NCBI GenBank assembly: GCA_018062405.1 | Contig: JAGOSF010000005.1 | Coordinates: 34,720-98,719, forward strand | Reading direction: 5' to 3' | Source of the DNA: Candidatus Babeliales bacterium | Lineage (GTDB): Bacteria > Babelota > Babeliae > Babelales > Chromulinivoraceae | DNA: 64,000 nucleotides | Shown: positions 416 to 55,255 of the stretch, in pieces | Numbering within the stretch: position 1 is the stretch's first letter | Layout of the letters: each line of letters begins with the position of its first letter | Notes under the pieces: generated by a model | Told to the model about the DNA's origin: nothing | Seen by the model: only the letters and a program-made list of their open reading frames with translations | Database searches by the model: none | Position numbers and translations under genes: made by a program

Positions 416-457
416 GGTATATCTTTCATGTTTATAATTGCGTGGGGATCGTTGTTA

Positions 458-542
458 TTGTGGATTTCATTTGTAGAGCTGTGTGAAAATAGCAATAAAT
501 TGTTCCGCTATTTTTCAGTGACTATCAAAATGAAATCCACAA
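458..542. repeat. Long imperfect hairpin between ATPase and primase genes
   Basis: Perfect 15-bp inverted repeat TTGTGGATTTCATTT (458-472) / AAATGAAATCCACAA (528-542) enclosing an inner stem TGAAAATAGC (484-493) / GCTATTTTTCA (507-517). Confidence 0.8.
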
Positions 543-564
543 CATCCACCAAAGCAACAGATTG

Positions 565-2355: not shown

Positions 2356-2377
2356 ATAAATTCTTCTTTCTACGTAT

Positions 2378-2411
2378 AAAAACCATCGTCCTTGCAGTTG
2401 ATGGTTTTTTT
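2378..2411. terminator. Intrinsic terminator-like hairpin between SpoVG-like gene and ATPase
   Basis: AAAAACCATC-N12-GATGGTTTTTTT. Confidence 0.55.
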
Positions 2412-2414
2412 GTT

Positions 2415-2681
2415 TTAATTTGTATTTACTATCTCTTCGAATTTTTTGATTACAGCTAGTTCTACTTGTTGAGCTACCTCCTTGTTTATGGGAAAAAAGA
2501 AATTAAGACTTTGACGGGTGTTTGTTCTTTTTGGGTATGTGAGACGGTACCGGCGTTTTGCACATGTAAAAATGCCGATACTGGAAAGATGAAAAGCATC
2601 GTTGATAACGAAAGACGCAAAGGCAATAAGCCCGTTGTCAGATATTACCGGTACGATTTGGATTTCACTTATTTTGATCAT
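2415..2681 (-). CDS. SpoVG-family nucleic-acid-binding protein
   Basis: MIKISEIQIVPV...LIAFASFVINDAFHLSSIGI...LTYPKR...FFPINKEVAQQVELAVIKKF matches the SpoVG pattern. Start moved to ATG 2681, which has a GGAGG RBS. Confidence 0.7.
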   Translation of the reverse strand: MIKISEIQIVPVISDNGLIAFASFVINDAFHLSSIGIFTCAKRRYRLTYPKRTNTRQSLNFFFPINKEVAQQVELAVIKKFEEIVNTN

Positions 2682-2844
2682 CACGCCTCCAAACTTTTTT
2701 AAGATTTCCTTGAGGAGCAATATCCAAATCCAGCAACGTGATAAAGAAGTCCGTAAGCTGTTTAGCTTCGTCTTTTGACAGAGGTCCTGGCGTGCGAGGG
2801 TGAGGTATGGATGTTGTGATAGTTAAATCTTTTTTTATCTTCAT
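2665..2844 (-). CDS. Small hypothetical protein (59 aa; not in ORF track)
   Basis: MKIKKDLTITTSIPHPRTPGPLSKDEAKQLTDFFITLLDLDIAPQGNLKKVWRRDDQNK*. Its stop overlaps the SpoVG-like start, suggesting translational coupling. Confidence 0.5.
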   Translation of the reverse strand: MKIKKDLTITTSIPHPRTPGPLSKDEAKQLTDFFITLLDLDIAPQGNLKKVWRRDDQNK

Positions 2845-2941
2845 GTAATAAACATAAAGACTGGCCGCGTGAGTGGAGGTGAGCTTAAGGTGAGCTTTTA
2901 AAAATTATGATGTTTTAATTTAAAATAGATTGTTAGATAAA

Positions 2942-2966
2942 GAAAAACCCCGAAAGGACATCGGGG
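2942..2966 (-). terminator. Rho-independent terminator after the 400-aa gene
   Basis: Minus strand CCCCGA-TGTCCTT-TCGGGG followed by TTTTT. Confidence 0.7.
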
Positions 2967-3008
2967 CGAATCAATAGGTTCATGAGTTTTTGATTTACTT
3001 ATTGAGTA

Positions 3009-4211
3009 TTAGCTGCATCTAATAAAAATATTTAAGAAATCTATGAATATAATTTTTTCCAATTGAGTTTGCTCTGTTATTCGATCGTTAATAGCATTTT
3101 TTCCATCAATACTATCCCGTATGCTTCTTTTAATTTTTTCTTGATTAGGATTCGTTTCATTTTCGCCATCATCAGTATTATCACTATCTAAATCATCAAA
3201 ATATAGGCAATCAAATTCATGCCATACGGAATGATCTTTTTGTTGTTTTATTTCATCATAAATTTCAGCAAAACTAATAGATTCTTTTCTGGGCTTTCCT
3301 CCAGGAAAAAGGACTTCTAGAATTTTACCTCGCAAGGTGTTGCGTCCAAATTTGATACTATAGATGCTGTTGTTATGTTTGATAGTTAAATAACCAGTTA
3401 AACGATCATATGAAATATTTTCCGATGGTATAACATCATCATTTTGAGAGAGTAATAATGGGCTGATGAATTGCCATACGATGTTCATATGAAATCTACA
3501 AAGTCTTATATCAAGCTTAGGCGTAGTGTTATTTTCTTTTTTAGTGGTTGTATCAACATTGAATAAATATAGGTTACTTATAAAATTAAAACTGCCAAAT
3601 ATTCCTGTTTGTTTAAAGGTTTCGTATGCAATGTGTTCATTAGTATATTTGAAGAAAACTAATCTGAATTTGAATTCAATATCATTTATATCGTTATTGT
3701 TATTATCAGGCTTAATAAAAAGTTGTGATAATAATATTGTATTTTTGCTATTAGATACCATAAGCTGCTGCAATATGTCGTTATGATCATTTGATAAATC
3801 CCAACGTAATGTTCGGATGATCATATTGCTAGCTTCTGTTAGTAGTTCATACAACCGAATAATCATTAAATCAGGATTTTTTGAGCATGTTATTTTTATT
3901 TGATTATATTTACTAATCACATTAGATAGCACTGGAATTTTATTTTGATAGTTTATAATTAAGAGCATAAAAGCTTCAAGTTCTTCTAGTGTTTCTTTTT
4001 GAATAACTTGAAACTGAAGTAAACGATCTTTTCCCATAGTTTCTATATTTGTGCGAGCATTATGTAGTCGTGGATGTTGGGATAAATATTTAGCAAATTG
4101 TTTGACGATAATTTCTATGCATTCTGTTTCATTTCCATTTGGCTCGTTCAAGCTGCGTTCATAAGCATCTTTTAAGATATTATGAATTCTTTTTGATTCT
4201 ATATTTTTCAT
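3009..4211 (-). CDS. Hypothetical protein (400 aa), possible C-terminal winged-helix DNA-binding region
   Basis: Long ORF. The segment YDRLTGYLTI...IKFGRNTLRGKILEVLF...ISFAEIYDEI loosely resembles OmpR-like winged-helix domains. Confidence 0.6.
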   Translation of the reverse strand: MKNIESKRIHNILKDAYERSLNEPNGNETECIEIIVKQFAKYLSQHPRLHNARTNIETMGKDRLLQFQVIQKETLEELEAFMLLIINYQNKIPVLSNVISKYNQIKITCSKNPDLMIIRLYELLTEASNMIIRTLRWDLSNDHNDILQQLMVSNSKNTILLSQLFIKPDNNNNDINDIEFKFRLVFFKYTNEHIAYETFKQTGIFGSFNFISNLYLFNVDTTTKKENNTTPKLDIRLCRFHMNIVWQFISPLLLSQNDDVIPSENISYDRLTGYLTIKHNNSIYSIKFGRNTLRGKILEVLFPGGKPRKESISFAEIYDEIKQQKDHSVWHEFDCLYFDDLDSDNTDDGENETNPNQEKIKRSIRDSIDGKNAINDRITEQTQLEKIIFIDFLNIFIRCS

Positions 4212-4632
4212 GAATACCTTTTTGAATAGTTATGTATTTATCGATTTTATCATACTATGCAGCGATATGGCTAATAGTTTTTAATCTTGAAATACGATAC
4301 TCCATCAAGCCCCTTAGACAAAATTCTTTTTTCGGGTATCCTTAGTATTGAGTTCATTATTTAGTATTCCTCTTTATACATGAGGTGGTTTGTGAAAGTT
4401 TTTATTTCTATTCTTTAATTAGATGTATTGCTGTGGCTTAATGTCATGGCTTATTTCTTTAGTCCGTCTTTGCCACTAGTCCGCTATAGCCTTGGCCACG
4501 GCTGGATCGCAAGGTCGGTAAAGTATTAATTTTATTATCAAAATAGTATGGTGCTTGCCCTGCTCATCAACGTTTTACGCGTAAGATGGCATTGGACAGG
4601 GTCATACATATTTTTATAGGTTAAAAAAGAAA

Positions 4633-39535: not shown

Positions 39536-40642
39536 TTATTCATAAAAATCATGAGCAGCATTCATAATAAGCCCTGCAATTGCGATGTTGCATGCAAGAG
39601 CAGTGTTTCCATAGCTAATAAATGGTAAACCTATTCCTTTTGTTGGAGCAAGGCCAGTTGACACAAAAATATTGATGAGTGCTTGAATCGTCACAAGAAT
39701 CGTTAATCCTTGAACAAGATAAACAGCAAACAAGCTTTTGAGATTCCATGAAATTTTAAAACCAAAATATAAAAATAAAGCAAAGAGCGTTATCAAAAAA
39801 GTTGTGCCAATGAATCCAATTTCTTCAGCAATAATAGCAAAAATAAAGTCGGTGTGTTGCATCGGTAAATAGAAAAATTTCTGTTTCGATTGTGCTATGC
39901 CATTTCCCCAAAGGCCACCAGAACCGATTGCGATAAGAGATTGAATCACCTGGAACCCAGCACCTTGTGGATCTTTCCATGGGTCTAAATAAATTAAAAT
40001 TCGTTTCCAACGATATGGTTGCAAATACACAAAAAAGCTTGCTACTGGCAGCGCAATAGCAGTAAGAATTGAAAGATATTTCATATTCATTTTTGCAATA
40101 AAGAGCATGATCAATACCGTCGCAAGAATGGTGACTGTGCAACCAAAGTCTGGTTGTTTGAGTAAAATTGCACTGATAAACATACAGATAAATAAAACTG
40201 GTAAATAGCCGCGTTTAAAAGATTCTCTATGATCTTGTTTACGAGAAAGAAATGATGCAACGTACACAATGGTGGTGATTTTTAAAATTTCACTTGGTTG
40301 AAAAATAAATCCAAATAAATTAACCCATCGGCTTGAACCATGCATGCGCTTGGTCAAAAATGAGATGAGTGGAAGTGCTGTTAAAAGCAATGAGCTCGTA
40401 AATAAAAATAAACTTCCGTGATTGAGTGTGCTTAAAGGAATTTTGTAGGCGCAATAAAAAAGAACTGTTCCCAACGCAATTCCCATGCATTGTCGCTGTA
40501 CATAATAAAGTGGAGAGCCAAATTTTTCTAAAGCGTAAAAGGAACTTGACGAGTAAACAAAAATAACACCAAGCATAACAAGTGTTAAAACTATGGAGAT
40601 AAAAATAGTAGCATCTTGTTTTATTTTTTGCTTTGTTAACAT
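39536..40642 (-). CDS. ftsW: Peptidoglycan glycosyltransferase FtsW (SEDS family)
   Basis: GSSRW...FQPSEILK, KQPDFG, YLPMQHTDFIFAIIAEEIG, KGIGLPFISYG. Confidence 0.88.
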   Translation of the reverse strand: MLTKQKIKQDATIFISIVLTLVMLGVIFVYSSSSFYALEKFGSPLYYVQRQCMGIALGTVLFYCAYKIPLSTLNHGSLFLFTSSLLLTALPLISFLTKRMHGSSRWVNLFGFIFQPSEILKITTIVYVASFLSRKQDHRESFKRGYLPVLFICMFISAILLKQPDFGCTVTILATVLIMLFIAKMNMKYLSILTAIALPVASFFVYLQPYRWKRILIYLDPWKDPQGAGFQVIQSLIAIGSGGLWGNGIAQSKQKFFYLPMQHTDFIFAIIAEEIGFIGTTFLITLFALFLYFGFKISWNLKSLFAVYLVQGLTILVTIQALINIFVSTGLAPTKGIGLPFISYGNTALACNIAIAGLIMNAAHDFYE

Positions 40643-40678
40643 TCAGGGCCTTTTTTTTACCTATTTTTTATTGCATGC

Positions 40679-40713
40679 AGTTGATTCTATCATCTTTGCC
40701 GTTAAATGCCAAT
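40679..40713 (+). repeat. 35-bp direct repeat, copy 2
   Basis: AGTTGATTCTATCATCTTTGCCGTTAAATGCCAAT. Confidence 0.8.
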
Positions 40714-41053
40714 CGATTTTAGGATCATAATATTTGCATAAAAATCATCTGATTTTTTCGATACTCAAATATTACTCTTTGTCTTGAGCAAGGCCTTTAT
40801 AGTGTTGAATCAATAACCATAGATTATAGATATAGTAAAATTCATAAACTTTAATGAAAAGCGGTTAAGCCGCCCGCCTGCGGCCATCATGCCGGAGTTT
40901 AACGTAGGCTGAATTTAAATTTTAGTAGCCAAGTGAATTATGCTAGAAGTTTATAAAAACTAAAAGCTATAATTTGATCTATTGCATTTTTTTCGTTTTA
41001 AATATTATCTTGTTTGCAGGGTAATGTTGTGATGATGCCATAAGGCTAAAATA

Positions 41054-44000
41054 ATGATTCTGCCAAGGAGTGTGATGATAGTTTTACAGCGACTTTTATG
41101 CATAATTGCTCTTTTTCTATACGGTAGCTTGGCTCAAGGGGCTGCAAACACTCCAGGTCGACAGGGAAAGCTTTTTGTTCCAGAAAAGACTGCTACAATT
41201 TCAGTTGAACATAAAGATCCAGTTGATCGTAATAAAAATCAGACTGTAAAAACTGAAAGTCGTGGCAAACCTGAAAATTTGTCGGCGCCAGACGCTGTGA
41301 AAGCAAAATCATCAATGGCAATACCAACACGGTCTGAAATAGTAACGAATAGATCAGAATCTAAGGTAAAAGATCCTGCTGTAGAAACAACTTCTAAAAC
41401 TTCTCAGCCAGTAAAAAATTCTGAATCAACTCGATCTTTAGATTTGCGCGAAGGCTTTGGTGAAACAAAATCTTCTGCACAGCCGCAGCCTATTAAAAAA
41501 TCATACTCTATAATCGATCTAAAAAAAATTGAAGCTGATCATCCTGTCCAACGGCTTGAAAAGGGTAAAGAAATTCGTTTTAATGAGCGCATGACAGATC
41601 CAATTGATATATATGTGCAAGCTCTAGAAAAAGCACCACAATATAGAAGTTTAGCAAAGCAAATTCCAGAAATTTTTGCTTCCTATGTTTTAGAGTTTTT
41701 TCAAAAGCAGTCAGGAAATACTGGATTTTTTGGAGGCCTTAAGAGTTTTTTTACAGCTTCTCCTGTTTATAGTCCAGAGCAATTAGTAAGAAGGTCTTAT
41801 GATTGGATAAATTTAACTGATTTTAATGCTGATTTGCCAAATCTTTATATGGGGATGAAAACTTTAAATGGTTTATTTGAATCTAATGTTAAAATTTATG
41901 ACCGTGCTGCAGAAAGCGGTAATCGTTTTATGGACGTTGATATGAATGTTTATGTCGAAGCTTTACGGCCTCAATTTCCTCATGTTCCAAATAAAATTTT
42001 AGAGTTGTATGTTACAACTTTCCTCAATGATCCTGCAAATCAAAAGTATGAACAAAAAAAAGAAGCAAATTTTTTGGGAATAAAAAGAAATGTTAATGAT
42101 CTGACAAAGCCAATAGCAATGACGCCAGAATATATTGCAAGTAAGACTCAAGGAGAGTTGGTTCGTGATAAACTTTCTGGATTAGAAATGCCAATAAAAG
42201 ATAACGTATTAGATGTTGTAGAGTTAAAGAATTTTCAAAAAATATATCTTACGATGAGAGCTATAGAAAATATTAATAGTAGATATCTATCAGAATATCG
42301 ATCAAAAGGTGTTGAAGGTGGGGTTGAATTGCAACCTCAAAAATCATTAGAGAATAAAATAACTGCAGCAATTGCATCTCCTGGATCTGTTGAAAGTTTT
42401 TTCTTGCGATGTGGAATTCCAAAAGAAAAGATGACAACATTCACGACTGAACAAATTAATCGGTCGCGTGATGCATTACAAGAAAATTATCCATCATTTG
42501 AAAGACTGAAAGATCTTACTCTCAAAGATCCTGTAGCATTTGACCAGTTGCAAATTGATTATGTTAATATCAATCAAGATATTATAGCTATAAAAAATAG
42601 ATATGGCTTTTCAAGTGATCAAGTTTTAACAACAATTCAATCTCCTAAAAATATTAGAGATAACGTTCAAAATTTGGTGGTGCAAGCTCAAAATTTAAGT
42701 AGAAATATGAATCAACTTATTGTCGATAGAAAAGTAGCCGATTTTTTTGAAAATTCATTGCCATCAGCAGAAAAAGATTTTTCTTTAGACAATACATTCA
42801 CTGTAACAAAAGAGTTGTTTAAGGATAACGCTTCTCTTCCAGAGTATTTAAAGCAACAGCAAAATCAAATTAGAAGTTCAATTAGTTCTGTTTTAAGTGG
42901 GATTCAGGATAAAATATCAAATTTACACGAGAGTGCGTTGGTTGAAACAACGCTTCCTGATTTGATTGAAAAAGCTGAAGTAGAATTGAAGTCCGCTGAG
43001 AATAATGCTCTAATTTCTGATCAGAGTAAACTCACCTTTCAAATTACAAAAGGATTTGTTGAGCAGTTAAAATTGAATTTAAAACAGCTTGAAACAAGTA
43101 GGAAACAATTAGAACAACAAGCAGAACGTATAATTAGAGAAGAGTTGCCTGATAGTTCATCTTCCCAAGATCGTGGTGCGGTTGTTGTAAAAATGTTAGA
43201 AAAATTAAAGCAATCTTTATCAGATCGTAAAATTTCTTCAGATCGTAAAATTGCTAGTGAAGTTGAAAAATTAGTTGAATTGTATAAAAATGAAGAATTT
43301 GAATATCAAGATATTCCTAAATTGAATCAAAAAATTAGAGAGTTGCTTGAAAAAAATAAAGATAATCAAGCTTTGAAACTTTATAATCAAGTTTTTTCAC
43401 AGTTAGATAGAATATTAGAACCTTATCAAGCATCAATTCAGCGTGAACATAAAGTGAATGCTCAAACGAAGTTGTATGTGGATAATATTTTAGATTCGAA
43501 TGTTTCTATTAACGATGCTATAAAAACTATTGAAAAGAAATTAACGGAATTAAACACAAATAAAGACGTTAATCTTACAAGTGCACAAAATGATTTAAAT
43601 AAAATTTTAGACAACAAGGACCGTGCCTTGCCTGATGGTATATCTAAATTTAGTATAAAAGCTAAAGATAATCTTGGTGATATTTATAATAAAATTTTAA
43701 CTGAGCTTAAAGAGCGTAAAAGAGTGCAAAATGAAGCAAGCTCTGCTTTCCAATTGGGTAATAATCTTTATGGAATTTTTCATAATCTATACGAACTTGA
43801 GGGAAGGCAGGCTGGTTCTCATGCTTTAGGAGCTGGGTGGAATACACCAGGCGCAGCAGTTGAAGTCGCAGGGGTATTGACCACATATGTTGATACTACT
43901 TTGGGTAAGGTAAAAGATAAATTGGATCCAAAAACGTTATTTGCAATTGCGGCAGTTATTACAGCAGTTTCGACAGCTTTAATACAAATTCAACAAAGTA

Positions 44001-44383
44001 ATGGATCTGCAGATGAAAAAAGAAAAATGCAAAATGATGTACTTGGAGCTATGATGGCAGATATTGGAAATTTAGTGATTGCAGATCAGACAGGTGCAAC
44101 TGTTGATGTTGTTGCTTCTGGTGATGCTCAGGCTATAGCAACCAGTGGTTTCTTTAACAAAGCTATTAATATGCTCAATCCAGAGGCTCAAACTAGTTTT
44201 AGTTATGACTCTTCAGTAACAACTCCTGGCTACGTCAGCAATGTGAGTCGATTTCAAAATAAAAATGCTGCAATTCTTCAGAATCAATCATATCCTCAGA
44301 GTAGTAGCAATAATGCTGTGAGTGGTTATAATCGTGCACCAGTAGTTTATAATCCTTATGATTCGTATGAGTATCCTTATTGA
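41054..44383 (+). CDS. Large secreted coiled-coil hypothetical protein (1109 aa)
   Basis: Signal-like N-terminus, low-complexity linker, helical Lys/Glu/Gln body, C-terminal hydrophobic segments. Confidence 0.85.
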   Translation: MILPRSVMIVLQRLLCIIALFLYGSLAQGAANTPGRQGKLFVPEKTATISVEHKDPVDRNKNQTVKTESRGKPENLSAPDAVKAKSSMAIPTRSEIVTNRSESKVKDPAVETTSKTSQPVKNSESTRSLDLREGFGETKSSAQPQPIKKSYSIIDLKKIEADHPVQRLEKGKEIRFNERMTDPIDIYVQALEKAPQYRSLAKQIPEIFASYVLEFFQKQSGNTGFFGGLKSFFTASPVYSPEQLVRRSYDWINLTDFNADLPNLYMGMKTLNGLFESNVKIYDRAAESGNRFMDVDMNVYVEALRPQFPHVPNKILELYVTTFLNDPANQKYEQKKEANFLGIKRNVNDLTKPIAMTPEYIASKTQGELVRDKLSGLEMPIKDNVLDVVELKNFQKIYLTMRAIENINSRYLSEYRSKGVEGGVELQPQKSLENKITAAIASPGSVESFFLRCGIPKEKMTTFTTEQINRSRDALQENYPSFERLKDLTLKDPVAFDQLQIDYVNINQDIIAIKNRYGFSSDQVLTTIQSPKNIRDNVQNLVVQAQNLSRNMNQLIVDRKVADFFENSLPSAEKDFSLDNTFTVTKELFKDNASLPEYLKQQQNQIRSSISSVLSGIQDKISNLHESALVETTLPDLIEKAEVELKSAENNALISDQSKLTFQITKGFVEQLKLNLKQLETSRKQLEQQAERIIREELPDSSSSQDRGAVVVKMLEKLKQSLSDRKISSDRKIASEVEKLVELYKNEEFEYQDIPKLNQKIRELLEKNKDNQALKLYNQVFSQLDRILEPYQASIQREHKVNAQTKLYVDNILDSNVSINDAIKTIEKKLTELNTNKDVNLTSAQNDLNKILDNKDRALPDGISKFSIKAKDNLGDIYNKILTELKERKRVQNEASSAFQLGNNLYGIFHNLYELEGRQAGSHALGAGWNTPGAAVEVAGVLTTYVDTTLGKVKDKLDPKTLFAIAAVITAVSTALIQIQQSNGSADEKRKMQNDVLGAMMADIGNLVIADQTGATVDVVASGDAQAIATSGFFNKAINMLNPEAQTSFSYDSSVTTPGYVSNVSRFQNKNAAILQNQSYPQSSSNNAVSGYNRAPVVYNPYDSYEYPY

Positions 44384-44517
44384 TAGTTTGTTGCTCTTAG
44401 ATGAGAATACGTCAACTATTATTTCTGTTATATTGATTGTTGCCAACATTAGATAGATGTTGTATAAACGATTTATTTTGTGGTATTATCAATATGAAAT
44501 GAAATAACTTTTGACTT

Positions 44518-45108
44518 GTGGTAAAGGTGTTCTCTGTGAAAAAATTAAATATAGTTATGGTAGGCTTGTTGAGTTTTGGTTCTTTAGCTATGAATGCTAT
44601 GGATGATACATTGATGTTTGATGAGCCTGATGCAACAATTATACGCAACTCTGATATGAGAATTGTAAGAATTAAAGATTTTGAAGATAGAATAGACTTT
44701 GCAGGAGGCTGTTTAAGTTCTAATAATTTAATCGATGGATCTGAAGCTATGTTCAAAATGTCATTGACTCATCTTGCAAGCAACATGCTTGATGATTTGA
44801 AAGAATTTCCTTCACGTGCGCAGGTTACAATTTTAGGTGATTTGGATAGGGATTGTCGCGTTGCTCAATCTTATAATTTAACAATTACTGGAAATGTAGT
44901 TCCAGAGAAAAACAAATGTAATTTTACCGCGTATTTAAAGATAGCTGGAAGAGAGAATGCTGATCTTGCTCGATTACGAAGAGATGGTGAAGTTGCGTCT
45001 CGTGAGTTGCGATCAAGACATCCATATGTTAAGGACGTTAAAATTACGGTTCATTCATTTGAAGAAGAGTTAGCACGTAAGATTTTATCTAGTCGTGGTA
45101 GCAAGTAA
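44518..45108 (+). CDS. Secreted hypothetical protein (196 aa)
   Basis: Signal-like N-terminus; terminator follows. Confidence 0.65.
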   Translation: MVKVFSVKKLNIVMVGLLSFGSLAMNAMDDTLMFDEPDATIIRNSDMRIVRIKDFEDRIDFAGGCLSSNNLIDGSEAMFKMSLTHLASNMLDDLKEFPSRAQVTILGDLDRDCRVAQSYNLTITGNVVPEKNKCNFTAYLKIAGRENADLARLRRDGEVASRELRSRHPYVKDVKITVHSFEEELARKILSSRGSK

Positions 45109-45142
45109 ACTTCTAAGAAATAGTTTTTAAATTTTGATAATT

Positions 45143-45174
45143 AAAAAAGGGCTCATTTGTGAGCTCTTTTTTTT
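45143..45174. terminator. Terminator
   Basis: AAAAAAGGGCTCA-TTTG-TGAGCTCTTTTTTTT. Confidence 0.75.
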
Positions 45175-45626
45175 GCCCAGTAATCTTTGGTTTGTTCCAA
45201 GATCACTGGGATTTTTTTGGTAAAGAATTGTGAGTTTTTGCCTTGTTTCAAGGATGTTTTATAAATTTTTTGAGAGATTTCTAACATTTCTAATGAGCAT
45301 TGATTTTCTTGAATCGCGATTATAAATTTTCTGCTGTGCATATTGATTTGTAGTTGCACAAAAACTTTTTGTCAGGTATTTATGCATGCAAAATCGATTC
45401 TATAAGCTTTTCTAGGCGTAAGATCGAAAGATAATCACCGGTTTTTGTGCAAATTTTTCACTGACAAATAGAAAGAATTGTTTTTTTGATCGTGACAAAA
45501 AATAAAATTCAGATTAAAATCGCATCATTGATCTATAGCTTATTTTCGAGCTTTTCTTTTTGACTTTGTTTGGAAATAGGTTCACCTTGAATTAATAATA
45601 ATTTTTTAAACAAGGTGGATTTTCGT

Positions 45627-48581
45627 ATGAATTTTGTATGGATGTTATTATTTTCAATATTTGTTTCTTCTTCTCTTTTTTCGTATGATCAATCGTATAA
45701 TAGGTTTGTCATACAATCAAATTTTATGCATCCATTTAGCTCTGATCAATCAACAGGCTTGTCTTCCTCTTTAACAAATCCAGCAGATGTATCGACAAGT
45801 ACGGTGATGGCATCGATAAATCCAATGATGCACATAGGTGTTGCTAACTATGGCGCTGGATATACTCAGGATTTGCAGCGCCATTATGAAAATCACGCAA
45901 AAGCTCATTTCTTAAAAAATCAAAAATATGCTTCGACTGGTTTTTCGCTCGAAGAGAAATTACGTAGGTTGCCAAAGAGAACGACATTTCCTTTTCAGGC
46001 TGCTTATAACAAAGATGGGATGGTCGCAACAAATAAGCATGGTGATCTATTAGATAATAAGGGTAATAGATGGGTTTTAAGCCCTGATGGAACAGAATGG
46101 GAAATAAGTAATAAATCAAGACAATTATTAAAAAAAGAAAAAGCTAACATTCCAGATTCAAAGAAAACAGATTTTGTAGAAACACCTCAAAATAGTAGAA
46201 CTATAGCTGTTATGGAATCGATGTTGTCGGCAATCGTCTTGGCAAATACAAACTTTTATGAGGCAAATTTTGATGGAATGTCAGCTGATTTTTTTACCAC
46301 ATTTCAGGAGTTGCAAAATAGTTCATTGAATCATGAAGAACGTAGTGTTCTTACGAGTAAGCTTAATTTTCAGATGATGCATCATTTAGTGAAAACTGGT
46401 CAGATACATCGTGGAATTATTAAAAAATATGAAAAACATCCATGGGCAATCCATAAAGATCTGACCGAGGCTGATTTTTCAGAACAATGCATGGCTAATT
46501 TTATGCTTGATTCGATGGCCTTTGCAGAAAATGATACAACTATAGAAATTGCACAAGCTGGATTGCGTGAATGGACAGATGGTATTCAATCGAAGACAGA
46601 AGAAGAATATTTGTATCATATGAATCGATCGAATCAATATTATGGGTCTTTGCGAAAGCAGTTACCGACTCACTCAATTACAGATTATGCTCAACCGATG
46701 GATCAAACCATTGCCATGATAGATGATTTTTTTGAAAAATATGCAGCGACAGTAAAAGAGTATTATAAAGATGCAATCGGAGAATTAAGTGATCTTGAAC
46801 AAGAACATTTACATAGAATTGAAAAGCGTTTAGATGCTTTAGAAAAATCAAAAAAACAGGTGAGACCTGAAAATCGTGTGCAACAAACGTATGCAATGAG
46901 CCCTTGCGCACAAGCTTTTTTTATGGAGCACAATTTAAATTATGCAGCATTCAATGGTGGTGTTGTTACCGATTTTCAACATTGTTTAACACAAGAAGTT
47001 TTAGGAATTATAGAATCGTCAGTTGAAATGGTTCGTTCTCATCATTATGAATCGATGATAAAGAATTTTACGATACATAATTGCCAGCTTGCAGTGTCTG
47101 GACAGCAATTGAATCAGTTAGCTCGGTTAAATGAAGCTGTAGCAGTCATTGATTATAGTCATTTTTTTGAAAATATTGCGCGGTTTATCTATGGCGATAA
47201 ATTGTATGGAGCTATGGACATTGGGGCGGCTAAATCATTAGATAAATGGATGGTGTTTGCCTATAAGTTAGGATCTGATCCAAAGGCAACGGTTAAAGAT
47301 TTAGCAGAAGATTGTTTGCGTATGGGTGAGGGTTTGTGTTTTGTTGCAAATTTTGTTCACGATGTAACTCCATTGCGCTACGTTACTGACTTGGCACGAG
47401 AACTGGTATCAGATCCATCTGAAGATGAGTCGGTTCAATTTGCAAGAATTGTGAAAAGGGATGAAGAACGGACAGAACGAAGTAGAAAAACAATTAAGGC
47501 TGGTTTGGTTGCAGCAGATAACATTATTAAAGGAATTGTAAAAAAATCTGTACATGAAAATTTGGTTGATGCCTCGGAATTTGTTTGCGATCTTGTGTTG
47601 ACTGATAAAATCACCCAAGGCTTTTTTAAATTAGCCCATTTTGTAGGTAAATCTGCATTGCAAGCAGGTAACGCAATGCAAAATATGTTACCACCAGAAT
47701 TGATGGATAGTTCTCTTAAACTTTCAACCAATGCAGGTGAAGTTGTTGCTGTTTTTGCTGAAACAGGAGAAACTGTTAGTTCAGTTGCAGCGGCTGCGCA
47801 AGCTGCAGAACGTATCACTCAGATTGCGGGTAATGTTACGCGAGCAAAAGATCTATTGGATGGGTTAAAGGATTTGTTGCAACCTGATCCAGAAAAGCTT
47901 ACTGAATTTCAAAAAACGATTGAGCCTTATTTGCGACAAGATAAACTGGTTAATGTTGATCGATTGCGTTCGATAGAAGGAGTTGATCAGGTTCAGAGAT
48001 TTAAAGATTATACAAACAATTTTCATCCAGATGAGCTTGCAAAATTAAAACCAGAAGAGATTTTGTATCTTAATTTGTGTGATTGGCTTGCACCGAAAGC
48101 AGATATAATTAATGCGGCTTTAAAGAAAAAAGGTGGTATAAGAATTGTCGATTCTGTAACAGGGGTTGAAGCCTATTATGAAAAATATGATTTGTTTCAT
48201 TCTTTGCTTGGTGAAATGTCTCCAGGTGCAGTAGCAAATAGAACTAGCGGAGGTCATTTGATGATTCCAGAATTGAGAGGAGCTACGCTTAAAACTGGCA
48301 AGGTTATACCAATTGGTCATGGCTTTTTTGATATCGATATTCAGTATTTAGGTAAAGAATCTGCTAATTATAAAAAGAATTCAGTTTATCCTTTGGGGAC
48401 ATTGCTAGAGGAGTCTGTAGAAATGCTAGAAAAAGCTACTGAAATATGTACAGAAATTAGTATTGAAATTAATCCTAAAAATTCTTTACAGCAAATTGTA
48501 AAAATAAAAAATAAAAATAGTCAAAGCTTTTACATAAGAATTGAAAATAAAATCGCTGAATTTTATCCAGGAAATATATAA
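45627..48581 (+). CDS. Full-length polymorphic toxin: signal peptide, unknown delivery region, EndoU-like nuclease C-terminus
   Basis: MNFVWMLLFSIFVSSSLFS signal. C-terminus FHSLLGE...SGGHL...KKNSVYPLG...EESVEMLEKA...EFYP fits the bacterial EndoU toxin pattern. Followed by a small immunity-like gene and homologous cassettes. Confidence 0.8.
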   Translation: MNFVWMLLFSIFVSSSLFSYDQSYNRFVIQSNFMHPFSSDQSTGLSSSLTNPADVSTSTVMASINPMMHIGVANYGAGYTQDLQRHYENHAKAHFLKNQKYASTGFSLEEKLRRLPKRTTFPFQAAYNKDGMVATNKHGDLLDNKGNRWVLSPDGTEWEISNKSRQLLKKEKANIPDSKKTDFVETPQNSRTIAVMESMLSAIVLANTNFYEANFDGMSADFFTTFQELQNSSLNHEERSVLTSKLNFQMMHHLVKTGQIHRGIIKKYEKHPWAIHKDLTEADFSEQCMANFMLDSMAFAENDTTIEIAQAGLREWTDGIQSKTEEEYLYHMNRSNQYYGSLRKQLPTHSITDYAQPMDQTIAMIDDFFEKYAATVKEYYKDAIGELSDLEQEHLHRIEKRLDALEKSKKQVRPENRVQQTYAMSPCAQAFFMEHNLNYAAFNGGVVTDFQHCLTQEVLGIIESSVEMVRSHHYESMIKNFTIHNCQLAVSGQQLNQLARLNEAVAVIDYSHFFENIARFIYGDKLYGAMDIGAAKSLDKWMVFAYKLGSDPKATVKDLAEDCLRMGEGLCFVANFVHDVTPLRYVTDLARELVSDPSEDESVQFARIVKRDEERTERSRKTIKAGLVAADNIIKGIVKKSVHENLVDASEFVCDLVLTDKITQGFFKLAHFVGKSALQAGNAMQNMLPPELMDSSLKLSTNAGEVVAVFAETGETVSSVAAAAQAAERITQIAGNVTRAKDLLDGLKDLLQPDPEKLTEFQKTIEPYLRQDKLVNVDRLRSIEGVDQVQRFKDYTNNFHPDELAKLKPEEILYLNLCDWLAPKADIINAALKKKGGIRIVDSVTGVEAYYEKYDLFHSLLGEMSPGAVANRTSGGHLMIPELRGATLKTGKVIPIGHGFFDIDIQYLGKESANYKKNSVYPLGTLLEESVEMLEKATEICTEISIEINPKNSLQQIVKIKNKNSQSFYIRIENKIAEFYPGNI

Positions 48582-48592
48582 GGAAATTTGTA

Positions 48593-49117
48593 ATGATTAT
48601 AAAAAAATATCAAACATATAAATATAAAACTATAAGTTATTTTGTAGTTGAGCGATTTGGAGAAGATATGTTTTATTTACATATGTTTTTATTAAATTGT
48701 TTTGGATATTTAAGAAGAAAGAATAATTTAGAGTTTAAAGAAGAAATAAAAACTATTTGTGAATATGGTATGACGTTTGATAATGCCGAGATTAGTATAG
48801 ATAATGAAAATAATATTGTATATGTTATTGAAAGCTTTTATGACTATCGTAGTAGGCCAAAAACGCCAAAAATAGAAGAATTACTTGAAACAGAAAATTT
48901 TATAGAGCTTTGTAAAATGGGCTTTTTAAATTATATAACAATGACAAGAGATAATTTTATGCATTTGTTGTTAACTTGGAATAAAATTTTAGATCAATTA
49001 CCACCATTTGCTTTGTTGTACCAAGATGATAAAGATTGGTATGATATATTGTCATTCGACTCAAAAGAGGCTATGGATAAGTTTTTAGCTGATCACACAA
49101 AAAAAGAAACAAATTGA
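48593..49117 (+). CDS. Immunity protein 1 (cognate to the full-length toxin)
   Basis: Starts 11 bp after the toxin stop; paralogous to 50130-50657 and 51398-51940. Confidence 0.75.
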   Translation: MIIKKYQTYKYKTISYFVVERFGEDMFYLHMFLLNCFGYLRRKNNLEFKEEIKTICEYGMTFDNAEISIDNENNIVYVIESFYDYRSRPKTPKIEELLETENFIELCKMGFLNYITMTRDNFMHLLLTWNKILDQLPPFALLYQDDKDWYDILSFDSKEAMDKFLADHTKKETN

Positions 49118-49134
49118 AAAAATAAGATTTTAGT

Positions 49135-49170
49135 AAGGCACATTCCTTTTAATTGGGTGTGCCTTTTTTT
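49135..49170 (+). terminator. Cassette-boundary terminator 1
   Basis: AAGGCACATTCC-N-GGGTGTGCCTTTTTTT. Confidence 0.75.
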
Positions 49171-49178
49171 GTGCCTCT

Positions 49179-50115
49179 TTTTGTAGGTGAATCTGCATTG
49201 CAAGCAGGTAACGCAATGCAAAATATGTTACCACCAGAATTGATGAATAGTTCTCTTAAATTTTCAACCAATGCTGGCGAAGTTGTTGCTGTTTTTGCCG
49301 AAACTGGAGAAACTGTTGGTTCAGTTGCAGCGGCTGCACAAGCTGCAGAACGTATCACTCAGATTGCGGGTAATGTTACGCGAGCAAAAGATCTATTGGA
49401 TGAGTTAAAGGATTTGTTGCAACCAGATCCAGACAAGCTTACTGAATTTCAAAAATCTATTGAGCCTTATTTACGACAGGATAAACTTGTTGATGTTGAT
49501 AGTTTACGATCAATCGAAGGAGTTGAACAGGTTCAAAAATTTAAAGATTATACAAACAATTTTCATCCAGATGAGCTTGCAAAATTAAAACCAGAAGAGA
49601 TTTTGTATCTTAACTTGTGTGACTGGCTTGCACCAAAAGCAGAAATAATTAACGAGGCGTTAAAGAAAAAAGGTGGTATAACAATTATAGACCCAAAAAC
49701 AAAGAAAATTTTAGCTCATTATGAAAAGTATGATCTATTTCATTCTTTGCTTGGAGAAATGAAACCAAAGTTTATGAATAATGTTGTAAAAGGTGGACAT
49801 TTACCTATTTTAGAATTAAAAGGAGCTCTCTTTGAAATTAGCGAGATTAAACCTTTGGGAAATGGATTTTTTGATATGACAATTAAGCGAGGAAGTAATC
49901 GTAAAAAAAACTCTTTTTTTCCACTTGGAACGTCTATAGAAGAATCTGTTGCTATAATAGAAGATGCAATAATAAATTGTGAAAAAATTGAAATAGTTGT
50001 ATTGAAAGATAAGGCATTGCAAGGGTTTCATGTTGTAAATAAAAGAAATCAACAGTTTATGCTTGTGTTAAATAAGAATGAGTTACAGTTTTATCCTTCT
50101 AATATTCAGTTGTAA
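49179..50115 (+). CDS. Silent toxin C-terminal cassette 2 (alternative EndoU-like domain)
   Basis: ~500 bp near-identical to 47639-48140, then divergent FHSLLGE...KGGHL...KKNSFFPLG...FYP; no signal peptide or clear RBS. Confidence 0.8.
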
Positions 50116-50129
50116 ATGATGAGAAGATT

Positions 50130-50657
50130 ATGATTATTAAAAGTTACGAGATTTTTGTTTTAAGCTTTGATGATTTTTCGAATGTAAATATTGATTTAAT
50201 TACAAGTTCAATAAATAATACTTACTATTTAAGAATGTTTTTAGTTTATTCTTTTGGGGATGTTAGAAGAGATAATATTTTAAATTCTATAGAGAAAATA
50301 GATGATTTTTTTCAGGATGGAATATCTTTCGATTTTGTTGATATAAGTATTGATAACAATGCTAATTTAGTTTATTTAAGTGAGTCTTGGTATGATTATA
50401 AAGATAAACCAACTACCGATGAAATAGAAAAATTATTGGAAGATGCAAATTTTATAGAACTTTGTAAAATGGGGTTTCTTGATTACGCAGTTATGACAAG
50501 AGACAATTTTATTCATTTGTTATTAACGTGGAATAAGATTTTAGATCAATTGCCATCATTTGCGTTGTTGTATCAAGATGATAAAGATTGGTATAATATA
50601 GTGCCATTTGATTCAAAAGAGGCTATGGATCAATTTATAGTTGATCATGTAAAATAA
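50130..50657 (+). CDS. Immunity protein 2
   Basis: Follows cassette 2; C-terminal half nearly identical to immunity 1 (NFIELCKMGFL...DNFxHLLLTWNKILDQLP). Confidence 0.75.
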   Translation: MIIKSYEIFVLSFDDFSNVNIDLITSSINNTYYLRMFLVYSFGDVRRDNILNSIEKIDDFFQDGISFDFVDISIDNNANLVYLSESWYDYKDKPTTDEIEKLLEDANFIELCKMGFLDYAVMTRDNFIHLLLTWNKILDQLPSFALLYQDDKDWYNIVPFDSKEAMDQFIVDHVK

Positions 50658-50687
50658 AAAAATAAAAAATATTGCAGACTTTAGTAT

Positions 50688-50719
50688 AAGGCACAATTCA
50701 TTCGGTTGATTGTGCCTTT
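50688..50719 (+). terminator. Cassette-boundary terminator 2
   Basis: AAGGCACAATTC-N-GATTGTGCCTTT. Confidence 0.7.
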
Positions 50720-51390
50720 GAGCCTTATTTGCGACAAGATAAACTTGTTGATGTTGATCGATTACGATCAATCGAAGGAGTTGATCAGGTTCAGAGATTT
50801 AAAGATTATACAAACAATTTTCATCCAGATGAGCTTGCAAAATTAAAACCAGAAGAGATTTTGTATCTTAATTTGTGTGATTGGCTTGCACCGAAAGCAG
50901 ATATAATTAATGCGGCTTTAAAGAAAAAAGGAGGTATAAGAATTGTCGATTCTGTAACTGGGGTTGAAGCCTATTATGAAAAATATGATTTGTTTCATTC
51001 TTTGCTTGGTGAAATGTCTCCAGGTGCAGTAGCAAATAGAACTAGCGGAGGTCATTTGATGATTCCAGAATTGCGAGGAGCTATACTTAAAACTGGCAAG
51101 GTTACTCCAATTGGGCATGGGTTTTTTGATATCGATATTCAGTATTTAGGTAAAGAATCTGCTAAGTGTAAGACGAATTCAGTATATCCTCTGGGGACAT
51201 TGCTTGAAGAATCTGTGGAGCTGTTAGAAAAAACTCAGGAAAATTTTAAAGAAATAATCTGTGTTATAGATAAAAGTGGAAAAGCAGATGTTATGATAGA
51301 AGGAAAATTAGGTGAATTTTTGGTATGTTTATTAAAGATAATGAAGCAAAATTTTTTCCAATGAATCCATCAGCAAAATTAAGGAAGTAA
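50718..51390 (+). pseudogene. Silent toxin cassette 3 (EndoU-like, one-base frameshift near the 3' end)
   Basis: ~510 bp near-identical to 47920-48430. Adding one T to the T5 run at 51317-51321 restores ...GEFFGMFIKDNEAKFFPMNPSAKLRK* ending at 51390, just before immunity 3. Confidence 0.75.
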
Positions 51391-51397
51391 GGAAGTT

Positions 51398-51940
51398 ATG
51401 AATATTAAACAATATAAAAAATTTGAATTTCAAATTGCGTTGCAAGTTGAGTTTCAAATTGTACGTTATTCTTTATTAGAAAGGAAATCATCATATGATT
51501 ATCCAATTTCATATATAGAAATATTTTTTTCTGATGGTTTTCCTTACGTTAATCGGTATGGAGTTAAAGATTTTATAAAAGAACGTACAGAAGGAATGAT
51601 GTTTGAAAGAATTGAGCTTCATATTGATAATGAACATAATGTAGCTTATATTCATGAGCCAATAGATTTTTCTAGATCAGATATTACTCCTGAAGTTCAT
51701 CAATTAATAGAAAATGATGATATTGTAAAACTTTGTAAAATGGGATTTTTGGGATATACAGTTATGACAAAAGATAATTTATTTCATCTTTTGTTGTTGT
51801 GGGGAGAGTTTGTAGATAAAAAGGCTCCCTATATTTTAATTTATTTGGATGATAAAGATTACTATGATACGTTATCATTCGATTCAAAAGAATCTATGGA
51901 TAAATTTGTAGCTGAGCATACAAAAAAAGAAACAAATTGA
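51398..51940 (+). CDS. Immunity protein 3
   Basis: Same family (LCKMGFLGYTVMTKDNLFHLLLLW...FDSKESMDKF). Confidence 0.75.
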   Translation: MNIKQYKKFEFQIALQVEFQIVRYSLLERKSSYDYPISYIEIFFSDGFPYVNRYGVKDFIKERTEGMMFERIELHIDNEHNVAYIHEPIDFSRSDITPEVHQLIENDDIVKLCKMGFLGYTVMTKDNLFHLLLLWGEFVDKKAPYILIYLDDKDYYDTLSFDSKESMDKFVAEHTKKETN

Positions 51941-51957
51941 AAAAATAAGATTTTAGT

Positions 51958-51993
51958 AAGGCACATTCCATTTAATTGGGTGTGTCTTTTTTT
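51958..51993 (+). terminator. Cassette-boundary terminator 3
   Basis: AAGGCACATTCC-N-GGGTGTGTCTTTTTTT, copy of terminator 1. Confidence 0.75.
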
Positions 51994-52002
51994 GTAGCCT
52001 CT

Positions 52003-52608
52003 TTTTGTAGGTGAATCTGCATTGCAAGCAGGTAACGCAATGCAAAATATGTTACCACCAGAATTGATGGACAGTTCTCTTAAACTTTCGACCAATGCAG
52101 GGGAAGTTGTTGCTGTTTTTGCCGAAACTGGAGAAACTGTTGATTGTGTGATGGCATCAAAAGCCTCTATGGATCGATTTGCTAAAAACACAGGTAAAGG
52201 AGCTGGCGCGAAGCGTGCTCTTGACCCATTTGATGATACCTTGAATTCTGAACCAAAAAAAGGTACCCCAGAATGGGATAAAAAATATCCGAATGGGAAA
52301 TATGAAGGTGCTGATTATCATCGTGAGTAGGCTAAATTAAAGGAAGATTTTAAAGGGAAGTCTAAAAAAAGCCCTGCTCCTCAAGATGGTCAAGCTGCTT
52401 TAGATCGTTCATTAGAAGTTGAAGGTTCTCGTCATAGAATTACAATCGAAGATGACAAAATTGTAATTTTAAGATATGAAGGAAATGATATTTACCATGG
52501 ATATATTGTTGAAGATTTTCATTCCATAAAAGATGTTAAAATTTTAAGCACGGTTTAGTTAATAGTGGTTTGGTAAAAGATATGAAATCAGGAAAGATAG
52601 TAAAATGA
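52003..52608 (+). pseudogene. Silent toxin cassette 4 (non-EndoU toxin domain; in-frame stop plus frameshift)
   Basis: ~139 bp junction homologous to 47639-47778. Then YEGADYH...KSPAPQDGQAALDRS...YHGYI, with TAG at 52328-52330 and a frameshift at ~52540-52555. The repaired frame ends in a TGA overlapping the ATG of 52605. Confidence 0.75.
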
Positions 52609-53267
52609 AAGAATTGATTTTAAAATTAACTGAAATTGAGTCTATAAAAATTGTTTCAGATTCTGATGTTGATTTTGCAAAAGTTGATTATTGTTGTGGA
52701 GAGCTTGTAGCTTATTTTGTTTATAACAATAATGAATTCATTATAGGGCAAGCTTCAGCAGGGGATTTATGTGAAAATTTTATTGCAAGATTGCAAAAAA
52801 ATTTAAAGAATGAATTGCAGATACATGAATCAATAAAGCAAAACTTAGGTTTTATGTATAATCAGTATTGCCATCAGTTGCCACTTCTATCATCTGAATT
52901 TGTTAAGATTTTATCAAAAAGTGGCGAGTCTTCTTATTGGGTAGGATTAGATTATGATGTTTGGTCAACTTATATATCTACAAAGTCAATGTTGACAACT
53001 TGGTTATATAATGATGATAAAGGTAATATTATTTTTGAAGTGACGCCTTTATATCAATGGTCATTTTTACCAGATGAACCAGAAGATCCAGATTTTCAAA
53101 CTTATGAAGAATTCATGAAAGATTATAAGCCATTAATTACGAGAGTTATACCTCGCCAAGTTGCTATCGAATGGTTGGGTCAAGTCATGAAAGTTTATCG
53201 AGGACTATTTTCAACTGAAGAAAATTATAAAAATATGTGCAAAGAATTAGGCTGGGAAGATTGTTAG
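52605..53267 (+). CDS. Immunity protein 4 (different family)
   Basis: ATGA-coupled to the cassette 4 toxin; homologous to 38886-39485. Confidence 0.75.
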   Translation: MKELILKLTEIESIKIVSDSDVDFAKVDYCCGELVAYFVYNNNEFIIGQASAGDLCENFIARLQKNLKNELQIHESIKQNLGFMYNQYCHQLPLLSSEFVKILSKSGESSYWVGLDYDVWSTYISTKSMLTTWLYNDDKGNIIFEVTPLYQWSFLPDEPEDPDFQTYEEFMKDYKPLITRVIPRQVAIEWLGQVMKVYRGLFSTEENYKNMCKELGWEDC

Positions 53268-53275
53268 AAACTGTT

Positions 53276-53320
53276 AAAAGGCAGTGCGCAATTACCTATG
53301 AATTGCGCACTGCCTTTTTT
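53276..53320. terminator. Bidirectional terminator closing the array
   Basis: AAAAGGCAGTGCGCAATT-ACCTATG-AATTGCGCACTGCCTTTTTT. Confidence 0.85.
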
Positions 53321-53326
53321 ACGAAA

Positions 53327-53737
53327 TTAAAATCCTTGGCCATCATCATCTTCTGGATTGTCAGAAATTAAAACTCCTAGCATATCCTTGATGTGGTTTC
53401 GATTGAAGTAGGTTAAAGCACCTTGTTTTTTATGAGAAGGTTGATCGTTTGGATTTTTGCAAGGATCAGATTCAAATTTAAAAACGTTTGTTTCGAATTG
53501 CCCAGATTTATGCATAAGCCGAGCTCCAATCCATTGTTCACCATTGATTTGTCCAGCCCATGGACGAATCGAAAGCCCATATTTTTGTAATACTGGATAG
53601 ACTGGTTTTAAAATACCATACAAATCTGCATACTCATTTTTAAATGCTTTACGATTAACTCGAATCGTTGGAAACTCAACTTGCGCCTGAGCTAACGCTG
53701 TGTATAATTGGTCTTTTTCTACCGACTCTAACATCAT
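53327..53737 (-). CDS. ERF-family single-strand DNA annealing protein (136 aa)
   Basis: LYTALAQAQVEF...FKNEYADL...PVLQKYGL...RLMHKSGQF...GALTYFNR...LGV...EDDDG matches the ERF/Rad52-like recombinase pattern. Confidence 0.8.
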   Translation of the reverse strand: MMLESVEKDQLYTALAQAQVEFPTIRVNRKAFKNEYADLYGILKPVYPVLQKYGLSIRPWAGQINGEQWIGARLMHKSGQFETNVFKFESDPCKNPNDQPSHKKQGALTYFNRNHIKDMLGVLISDNPEDDDGQGF

Positions 53738-53842
53738 GGCCTTTTACCCTTTATGTCTCTCTTCTATTCTTAATAAAATTTAATTATTTCATATCTAAGA
53801 ATACCTCATAAACCGCAGAGTGAAAAGGTTTTTTCATTGTTT

Positions 53843-55255
53843 TTATAAACTTTTTTTGTTGCAAAAGTTTTCTACAAGTTGTGTAAAATAATGACCACGA
53901 GCTTTATAATCAGCAAACAAATCAAAGCTTGAGCCACCAGGTGAAAATAAAATATTGTGGGGTGATTGCAAACTTTTCATGCATGCAGCAAACGAAGCAT
54001 CAAGGGTTGCATGGATCTGATACTTGATGTTAAATTGTGCGCAAAGTTGTCCAATTTGTTCAGCTTCTTTTCCAAAAGCATATATTTCGATGGCGTGATT
54101 TTGTAAAGCTTGCATGAGTGGCGTGCGATCTGCGCCTTTACTTAATCCACCTAAAAATAGTTTGATTGGTTGATCGTTTTTTATTGATGTGACGGCTTGC
54201 AGTGTTGCTTGCCAAACGGTTGATTTTGAATCATTGTAAAATGTTGAGCCGTTCCATGATATATTGATTTTTTGTAAGCGGTGGTCTGGGAGCGCAATTG
54301 GCTGTGTCGCCAAAGAAATTATGGATAAAGGAATTTGTAAAATATCAGATGCCGCAACGATAATGACCCAGTTGATAGCAAAAGTTAATGATGCTGGCAG
54401 GGTGTCGCAATCAAAAATTTCTTCATCAAGGTTATTTTTGATTCTATGAATTTTATTATCGTAATCATAATAGATCGTATGGTCTTGATATTTTTCAATA
54501 TCTTTTTGTGATGGTCGTGTTGCAAAAAACAGATTACAACTTTTTTTATGAGGAGCGTTTTGCATAATGATATCTGTGCAGTCGTCATTGAGTGGGATCA
54601 AAGCTTGCTGTTCATTATTTTGAAATTTGAAGATGTTACATTTTGCATCAAAATATTCTTGCACTGACAGATGATGATCAAGATGGTTGGTAAAAAAATT
54701 GGTCATGATTGCAAGGTCTGGTGCAAACTTTTGAATTGGCTGTAATTGAAAACTTGAAAGCTCTAAAATTAAAAACCGAAGATCTGTAGATTGATGATTA
54801 TTTTTTTCAGAAATAAGATTTAGCATTGCATGGCCAATGTTACCAGCAGCGATAGAATCTGGGTATTTGTATTGTAAAATTTTTTCGAGCAAATGCGTGA
54901 TACTTGTTTTGCCGACAGTGCCGGTGATTGCAACGGTTTTATAATGAGTTTTATGATAGATGAGATCAAGCTCGTTGATAAATTTATACGCAAAGTTTTG
55001 GTAGTTATGCAACTTAATACCAGGGCTTGCAAGAATATAGTCATTGCTGTGTAAAAAATTTAAAATCGAAGCATCAGTTTGTATCGTTGCAAAAACGTGA
55101 TTTTTTGTCGCTGGTAGTGTGATTTTTTTGGTGTCTAGAATTTCGATCTGTTGAACTTGTTGTTGATCAAAGTAGGTGAGAGCTGAAAGACCGACAACTC
55201 CAAAACCCCAAATTCCGATTTTTTTATCTTGAAATATGTTCATATTTTGCTGCAT
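53843..55255 (-). CDS. murD: UDP-N-acetylmuramoyl-L-alanine:D-glutamate ligase
   Basis: AITGTVGKTS, GNIG, LELSSFQL, NHLDHH, YNDSKST, LGGLSKG, SPGGSSFD...RG. Confidence 0.95.
   Translation of the reverse strand: MQQNMNIFQDKKIGIWGFGVVGLSALTYFDQQQVQQIEILDTKKITLPATKNHVFATIQTDASILNFLHSNDYILASPGIKLHNYQNFAYKFINELDLIYHKTHYKTVAITGTVGKTSITHLLEKILQYKYPDSIAAGNIGHAMLNLISEKNNHQSTDLRFLILELSSFQLQPIQKFAPDLAIMTNFFTNHLDHHLSVQEYFDAKCNIFKFQNNEQQALIPLNDDCTDIIMQNAPHKKSCNLFFATRPSQKDIEKYQDHTIYYDYDNKIHRIKNNLDEEIFDCDTLPASLTFAINWVIIVAASDILQIPLSIISLATQPIALPDHRLQKINISWNGSTFYNDSKSTVWQATLQAVTSIKNDQPIKLFLGGLSKGADRTPLMQALQNHAIEIYAFGKEAEQIGQLCAQFNIKYQIHATLDASFAACMKSLQSPHNILFSPGGSSFDLFADYKARGHYFTQLVENFCNKKSL

Follow-up and report, generated by a model that had tools for sequence, protein, structure and literature searches.

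The closest described relatives of the gene analysed here are the phage annealases of the ERF superfamily, together with host-encoded members of the wider Rad52/ERF superfamily such as Deinococcus DdrA. P22 Erf and Gp77 (the Erf homologue of SECphi27) have a two-domain build and belong to a family of 204–227 aa; in Gp77, residues 1–125 form a 24-mer ring to which the C-terminal region is peripheral (PMC13017515), and in Redbeta the C-terminal domain binds both the exonuclease and host SSB, the SSB contact being needed in vivo (PMC11611040). Mitochondrial Mgm101 is likewise host-encoded (PMC3655812, PMC5176325). Both DdrA and Mgm101 are ring-forming annealase folds adopted for cellular DNA maintenance without a phage exonuclease, and are likened to the protein studied here by shared fold class alone. 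For toxin arrays, the described comparators are the CdiA-CT/CdiI and Rhs orphan modules, in which switching is thought to use general homologous recombination; we know of no dedicated annealase partner in the definition of either system.

The window (the whole 64,000-nucleotide stretch of DNA analysed) holds an ERF gene directly beside an array of toxin and immunity genes, and a preliminary description proposed that ERF is a domesticated phage recombinase which may drive the switching of toxin tips. Our analysis points instead to a phage ERF reduced to its N-terminal core, the C-terminal, partner-binding domain of which would have been lost once, in an ancestor of a Chromulinivorax-like (Dependentiae) group; strong purifying selection has since maintained the shortened gene as one ordinary, single-copy gene of the host chromosome; we put the probability of this reading at roughly 0.7. 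Host-kept ERF cores of this kind are little described.

An ERF-family gene beside murD

The gene encodes an ERF-family (phage-type DNA-annealing) protein. It matches the Pfam ERF profile (PF04404) with 26.6 bits (E 6.8e-6, profile positions 2–119 of 153), which is barely above the curated cut-off of 25 bits, and PHROG 2324 ("Erf-like ssDNA annealing protein") with E 1.5e-18; its full-length close relatives score 28–41 bits on the same Pfam profile. All 14 invariant and all 35 near-invariant positions of the family are retained. The annotated ERF proteins of cultured phages share 25–30% identity with it (tblastn), and none nearer than ~30% was found among cultured phages. [quoted passage not shown] Its best Foldseek match is the N-domain of Gp77 (9y6u, E 1.8e-5, TM 0.61/0.66), followed by human RAD52 chains, the matches to RAD52 and Mgm101 being weak. 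In size it corresponds to the ring-forming residues 1–125 of Gp77, and as in Gp77 an acidic stretch follows the core.

Unlike P22 Erf and Gp77, the protein has no C-terminal domain at all, and the two-domain build of the superfamily is not found in it. We recovered 75 relatives from 5.8 billion proteins, 74 at 55–92% identity plus a single distant one at 35%; the majority are 200–230 aa long and run on for ~70 residues beyond the EDDDGQG motif, whilst the window protein, whose C-terminus reads ...SDNPEDDDGQGF with DNPEDDDGQGF as its final residues, ends three residues after EDDDG. Nucleotide homology to every relative starts at or near the ATG and stops at 53331–53335, just past EDDDGQG, and no remnant of the C-terminal domain was found either downstream of ERF or elsewhere in the 1.23-Mb genome. 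As homology stops after EDDDGQG, residues 1–125 of Gp77 constitute the ring, and partner binding resides in the C-terminal domain of Redbeta, the gene that had been called compact is, to judge from these alignments, truncated: an N-terminal ring and DNA core without the partner-binding part.

Table 1. Features of the window around the ERF gene.
Feature	Position	Strand	Basis or remark
ftsW	39536..40642	-	FTSW_RODA_SPOVE domain
Toxin/immunity island: two long toxin genes, three headless tips and immunity genes	41054..53267	+	ORFs, junction repeats
Last immunity-like gene of the cassette array	52605..53267	+	59% identical to the immunity gene of the C12 array
Bidirectional terminator-like hairpin between ERF and the convergent immunity-like gene, common to both	53278..53322	.	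18-bp stem
ERF-family gene, N-terminal (putative ring-forming, DNA-binding) core only	53327..53737	-	136 aa, ATG start
5' leader of ERF, ~56 bp, with ribosome-binding site (CATAAAGGGT)	53738..53793	-	blastn against L059
murD	53843..55255	-	Mur_ligase_M and MurD-like_N domains; orthologues in relatives

The immediate surroundings are as first described (Table 1): a compact ERF-domain ORF with EDDDG near its end, lying downstream of murD across a 105 bp gap, converges on the last immunity gene of the array through a shared terminator and has no other phage gene nearby. The hairpin between the two convergent genes has a dG of -29.8 (+) and -29.1 (-) kcal/mol (z -8.6 and -7.2) and is flanked by T runs on both strands; it occurs once in the genome and differs from the ERF terminator in the relatives L059 and L051. 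A consensus terminator scan did not list it, obvious though it is, and a consensus promoter scan returned promoter counts equal to those of shuffled sequence. When the neighbours of ERF were compared with the 289 ORFs of nine related phage contigs, the nearest match lay 51 kb off. This match, the only other one in the window to phage-contig ORFs, is a SpoVG-like ORF (2415–2720, minus strand; Pfam SpoVG, 34 bits) that shares 62% identity with the ORF immediately preceding ERF in phage contig L039, and it sits in a module at 1–4300 which also holds a primase zinc finger.

Phage kin, descent and chromosomal sites

Full-length relatives with 80–92% amino-acid identity over residues 1–134 occur in uncultured phage contigs of 35–40 kb (L015, L033, L037–L042), which carry a P22-type portal, RusA, HU, an ankyrin-repeat gene and many small early genes; seven further full-length relatives are in IMG/VR. 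The phage-contig proteins have the EDDDGQ motif in common with the window protein but continue for ~70 aa into a variable helical domain, which the window ERF does not. From this likeness the phage contigs are the evident source lineage of the gene, and they probably represent phages of Dependentiae, so that a family of ~35–40 kb uncultured phage contigs would be tied to these hosts. The bacterial copies come, by the source names of their protein clusters, from "Candidatus Chromulinivorax sp." and "Candidatus Dependentiae bacterium", and in one assembly (GCA_040384425.1) a full-length ERF on a phage contig occurs together with a short one on a bacterial contig. Base composition and GC3 did not separate phage from host copies, and a search of a genome-contig collection with the ERF protein gave no match.

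In two of the phage contigs (L038 and L042) ERF is immediately preceded by the 3' four-fifths of comM, an arrangement suggestive of integration into comM. A prophage at comM in the genome of the window (C5:234–254 kb) was considered and rejected, the neighbours being esterases and acetyltransferases with no phage genes; a large serine recombinase of 516 aa lies ~1.5 kb from the intact comM there (C5:247359–252015; L056 13359–18015) and may be an old integration scar. In phage contig L039, an ORF directly upstream of ERF (1161–1265) is 51% identical to the ERF N-terminus over its first ~30 residues and looks like a small partial duplication of ERF.

Across the order, ERF was found in 38 of 261 genomes, nearly always as one copy, the open frame of the window being the shortest; it is absent from the same-genus genomes G001 and G002. 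We collected 22 short forms, which are 136–143 aa long except for two with over-called starts. The motif SDN[PH]EDDD is present in every one of them, as against 8 of 71 long forms, and all 22 group within a single well-supported clade of 26 sequences; constraining the short forms to be one group gives a tree no less likely than the unconstrained one (p-AU 0.68). This is consistent with the short forms being one lineage of single origin. A more distant short ERF (142–155 aa, ~40% identity) occurs in 7 of 10 genomes of the sister genus. The short ERFs of L002–L009, from the sister genus and one other family, stop 10–20 residues after the acidic DDDG motif, and a 300-aa neighbour is common to part of this set.

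The dN/dS of the short ERFs is 0.007–0.06, with synonymous sites near saturation against ~5% amino-acid divergence. Between L059 and L051, at the same locus, there is 1 non-synonymous difference against 27 synonymous ones; between the window and L059 the figures are 10.5 and 49.5, and between L010 and L011 dN is 0 at a dS of 0.19. Judged by these substitution patterns, the short ERF is under very strong purifying selection.

The closest homologue (95% amino-acid identity; L059/L060) is flanked by cda and uvrA, beyond which come ruvB-rodA-SDF-GH1 in one direction and mutS in the other, and the same cda|ERF|uvrA site recurs with variable inserts in L051/52, L053–55, L034, L045 and L010–14. Nucleotide identity between this closest relative and the genome of the window is 85% for ERF, and 77–82% for ruvB, rodA, cda, uvrA and mutS. 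Because the site is conserved and the divergence of ERF is close to that of the flanking core genes, the comparison points to vertical inheritance of a gene kept by the host. Unrelated-looking flanks had raised the possibility of independent prophage remnants or of a hopping gene, which was rejected as cda|ERF|uvrA recurs in five sequence clusters and a single origin fits. At least four other sites are occupied by short ERFs (TopA-antiporter, HtrA, SNF2 and DUF5122/YbaK); since these exist, and since the gene is missing from G001 and G002, it is best described as conserved but not strictly core, and some lateral movement may have taken place. The gene of the window thus differs from a phage ERF recombination module in being chromosomal, single-copy and apparently vertical, with no adjacent SSB, exonuclease or other phage gene. 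The proposal that it is a domesticated phage recombinase is supported by the full-length kin in phage contigs, by a lineage compatible with single origin, by the low dN/dS and by the conserved site. Among the variable neighbours, a 77-aa gene and a Fic-domain gene stand beside the short ERF in L051 (10685–11316) and L052 (5650–6281), and a nucleotidyltransferase and NTase_sub_bind pair does so in L044 (3287–3996).

In the genome of the window the ancestral neighbours are dispersed, with cda on contig C11, uvrA at C3:8963 and ERF at C3:88049 by murD. Window positions 53334–53793 align to L059 10404–9951 at 82.8% (blastn), covering the ORF and its leader, and are unrelated farther upstream. As only the ORF and the ~56 bp leader still align with the ancestral site, it is a piece of ~460 bp that, by this alignment, was relocated to the gap between murD and ftsW. 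This gap seems to be a variable slot, a hot spot for accessory DNA in the family: the two genes are 72–77 bp apart in G007 and G011, 0.7–1.4 kb in G006 and G003, 2.6 kb in G001, where three secreted coiled-coil genes make up the gap, and 13.2 kb in the window (accessory island 40643–53842), where the toxin island and ERF together fill it.

The adjoining toxin/immunity array

The island has the classic layout of CdiA-CT/CdiI and Rhs orphan arrays, with full-length toxin, immunity genes, headless tips and a common junction. The slightly diverged junctions first given as 139–510 bp are real and were re-measured at 147 bp (94.6% identity), 583 bp (90.4%) and 538 bp (93.3%). The toxin family has a second array elsewhere in the genome (C12:105656–110396; L032), made up of an 871-aa toxin with a 220-aa immunity gene and a 234-aa headless tip with a 205-aa immunity gene. 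Over its first 2.5 kb it is 95.7% identical to window 45250–47777, and the last cassette of the window (51995–53268) is 81.6% identical to the expressed tip and immunity gene of C12. The tip ORF of this last cassette ends at 102 aa while DNA homology to C12 continues, and it looks like a broken copy. Both arrays end in the same ~70 bp, after which C12 has its own, different hairpin and an unrelated gene, not ERF; homology between the two stops at 53268–53281, ahead of the hairpin and ERF, and ERF lies outside the repeated array unit. The toxin family is also present in G001, the only complete ERF-less genome, which has toxin and immunity genes and no headless tips, and in G002, a fragmented genome (85% complete) with several junction copies at contig ends. 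A search of a metagenome-contig collection with the toxin junction peptide gave no match.

A link of ERF to the switching of toxin tips is not supported. By that account, ERF would anneal the junctions of 150–580 bp and 90–95% identity between the toxin gene and the headless tips, would drive switching independently of RecA and would be functionally part of the array. ERF does directly adjoin the array, the junction repeats exist and are diverged by 5–10%, tips have moved between both arrays of the genome, and the absence of headless tips from G001 is weakly favourable, few ERF-less array genomes having been sampled; SSAPs, moreover, tolerate diverged homology (PMC5499656). The co-occurrence that had been expected between ERF and the toxin family nevertheless fails in both directions. 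The 204 kb that flank 20 other short-ERF loci contain no homologue of the island's toxin and immunity genes, and in the sister genus ERF occurs but the toxin does not; conversely, the C12 array has no adjacent ERF, and G001 and G002 possess the toxin family but lack the gene. The preliminary description would have counted an ERF beside murD in relatives lacking the array against the pairing; in relatives ERF adjoins uvrA, not murD, and has no array, which speaks in the same sense. The ERF lineage is older than its position on the murD side, array homology ends before the hairpin, and the C-terminal domain that Redbeta needs in vivo (PMC11611040) is gone. RecA was found in each of the 15 relatives searched for it. 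Repeats of 150–580 bp are ordinary RecA substrates. We therefore regard a tip-switching role as highly unlikely and read the adjacency as an accident of two accessory items in one permissive slot, although in a single case a lineage-specific co-option would look the same; an annealase partner is not supported for this array. Since a dedicated tip-shuffling annealase fails co-occurrence, the toxin array is best studied without ERF.

Likely role and its alternatives

As a host gene with its ancestral place between cda and uvrA and a later move to the murD-ftsW gap in this genome, the short ERF would assemble rings through its N-domain, by analogy with P22 Erf and Gp77, and would bind and anneal ssDNA. 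Lacking the C-terminal domain, it would have no coupling to a phage exonuclease or to SSB docking, and might act by itself in the host, annealing ssDNA or binding ends during repair or recombination. Such a part in host DNA repair or annealing is the role we favour, tentatively, by extension from homologues, with some probability left for roles not named here. The simplest ancestral neighbours, uvrA and mutS, suit a repair role and give only a hint of it, as ERF has its own terminator. A replacement of missing RecO by ERF was also considered; the RecO_C domain (PF02565) was undetectable in all 15 genomes of the lineage that were searched, whether they had ERF or not, and its absence thus does not bear on the idea.

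Use against phages is a less probable role. A tail-less ERF could join the ERF of an infecting phage in mixed rings and so poison circularisation or recombination of the phage genome, or it could act as a decoy or sensor partner; we consider this unlikely, and less likely still its more specific form, a dominant-negative defence of the Dependentiae lineage by a "stolen subunit", in which a long-kept N-domain poisons incoming phage ERF rings in the company of conflict genes. The idea draws on the N-domain being the ring-forming part (PMC13017515), on its 80–92% identity to the N-domains of co-occurring phages, both forms being held in GCA_040384425.1, on the patchy distribution of the short ERF within the genus, and on the conflict genes that often adjoin it (the Fic module in L051/52, the NTase/HEPN-like pair in L044, the toxin island in the window); phage ERF rings are, besides, known targets of bacterial immunity (RAZR). 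It is weakened by the absence of any PADLOC-DB match at E <= 0.01 and of any partner gene conserved across the short-ERF sites, by a simplest ancestral context that is housekeeping and repair (cda, uvrA, mutS) rather than a defence island, and by a dN/dS range with no sign of arms-race diversification, whilst constraint on a DNA-binding ring of any kind would account for the extreme conservation just as well. That the gene is instead a functionless leftover of a decayed prophage, its frame still open by chance, would suit a lone gene of phage origin that has no partner genes, is truncated relative to its family and is missing from two same-genus genomes. The selection data make a dead remnant very unlikely: 22 intact short forms persist with synonymous sites near saturation at ~5% amino-acid divergence, same-locus orthologues differ by a single non-synonymous change against 27 synonymous, all family-invariant residues and the ribosome-binding site are conserved, and a compactly spaced genome of 1.2 Mb would hardly preserve dead DNA for so long. 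We give a leftover the lowest probability of the readings weighed here.

On the reading as a host-kept core, a bacterium whose genome measures 1.2 Mb has retained a phage annealase cut down to its core, apparently throughout the divergence of a genus-level clade. Such a natural "N-domain only" ERF lets one ask what the core does without partner binding, and whether its use is in repair or against phages.

The C-termini of the short ERFs (53327–53350 in the window, and in relatives) consist of the acidic run and a few further residues, often including one aromatic, with the variants DDDGQGF, DDDGQGFHG, DDDGQSVSF and DDDGQSY; these ends loosely resemble the acidic-aromatic tip of bacterial SSB.
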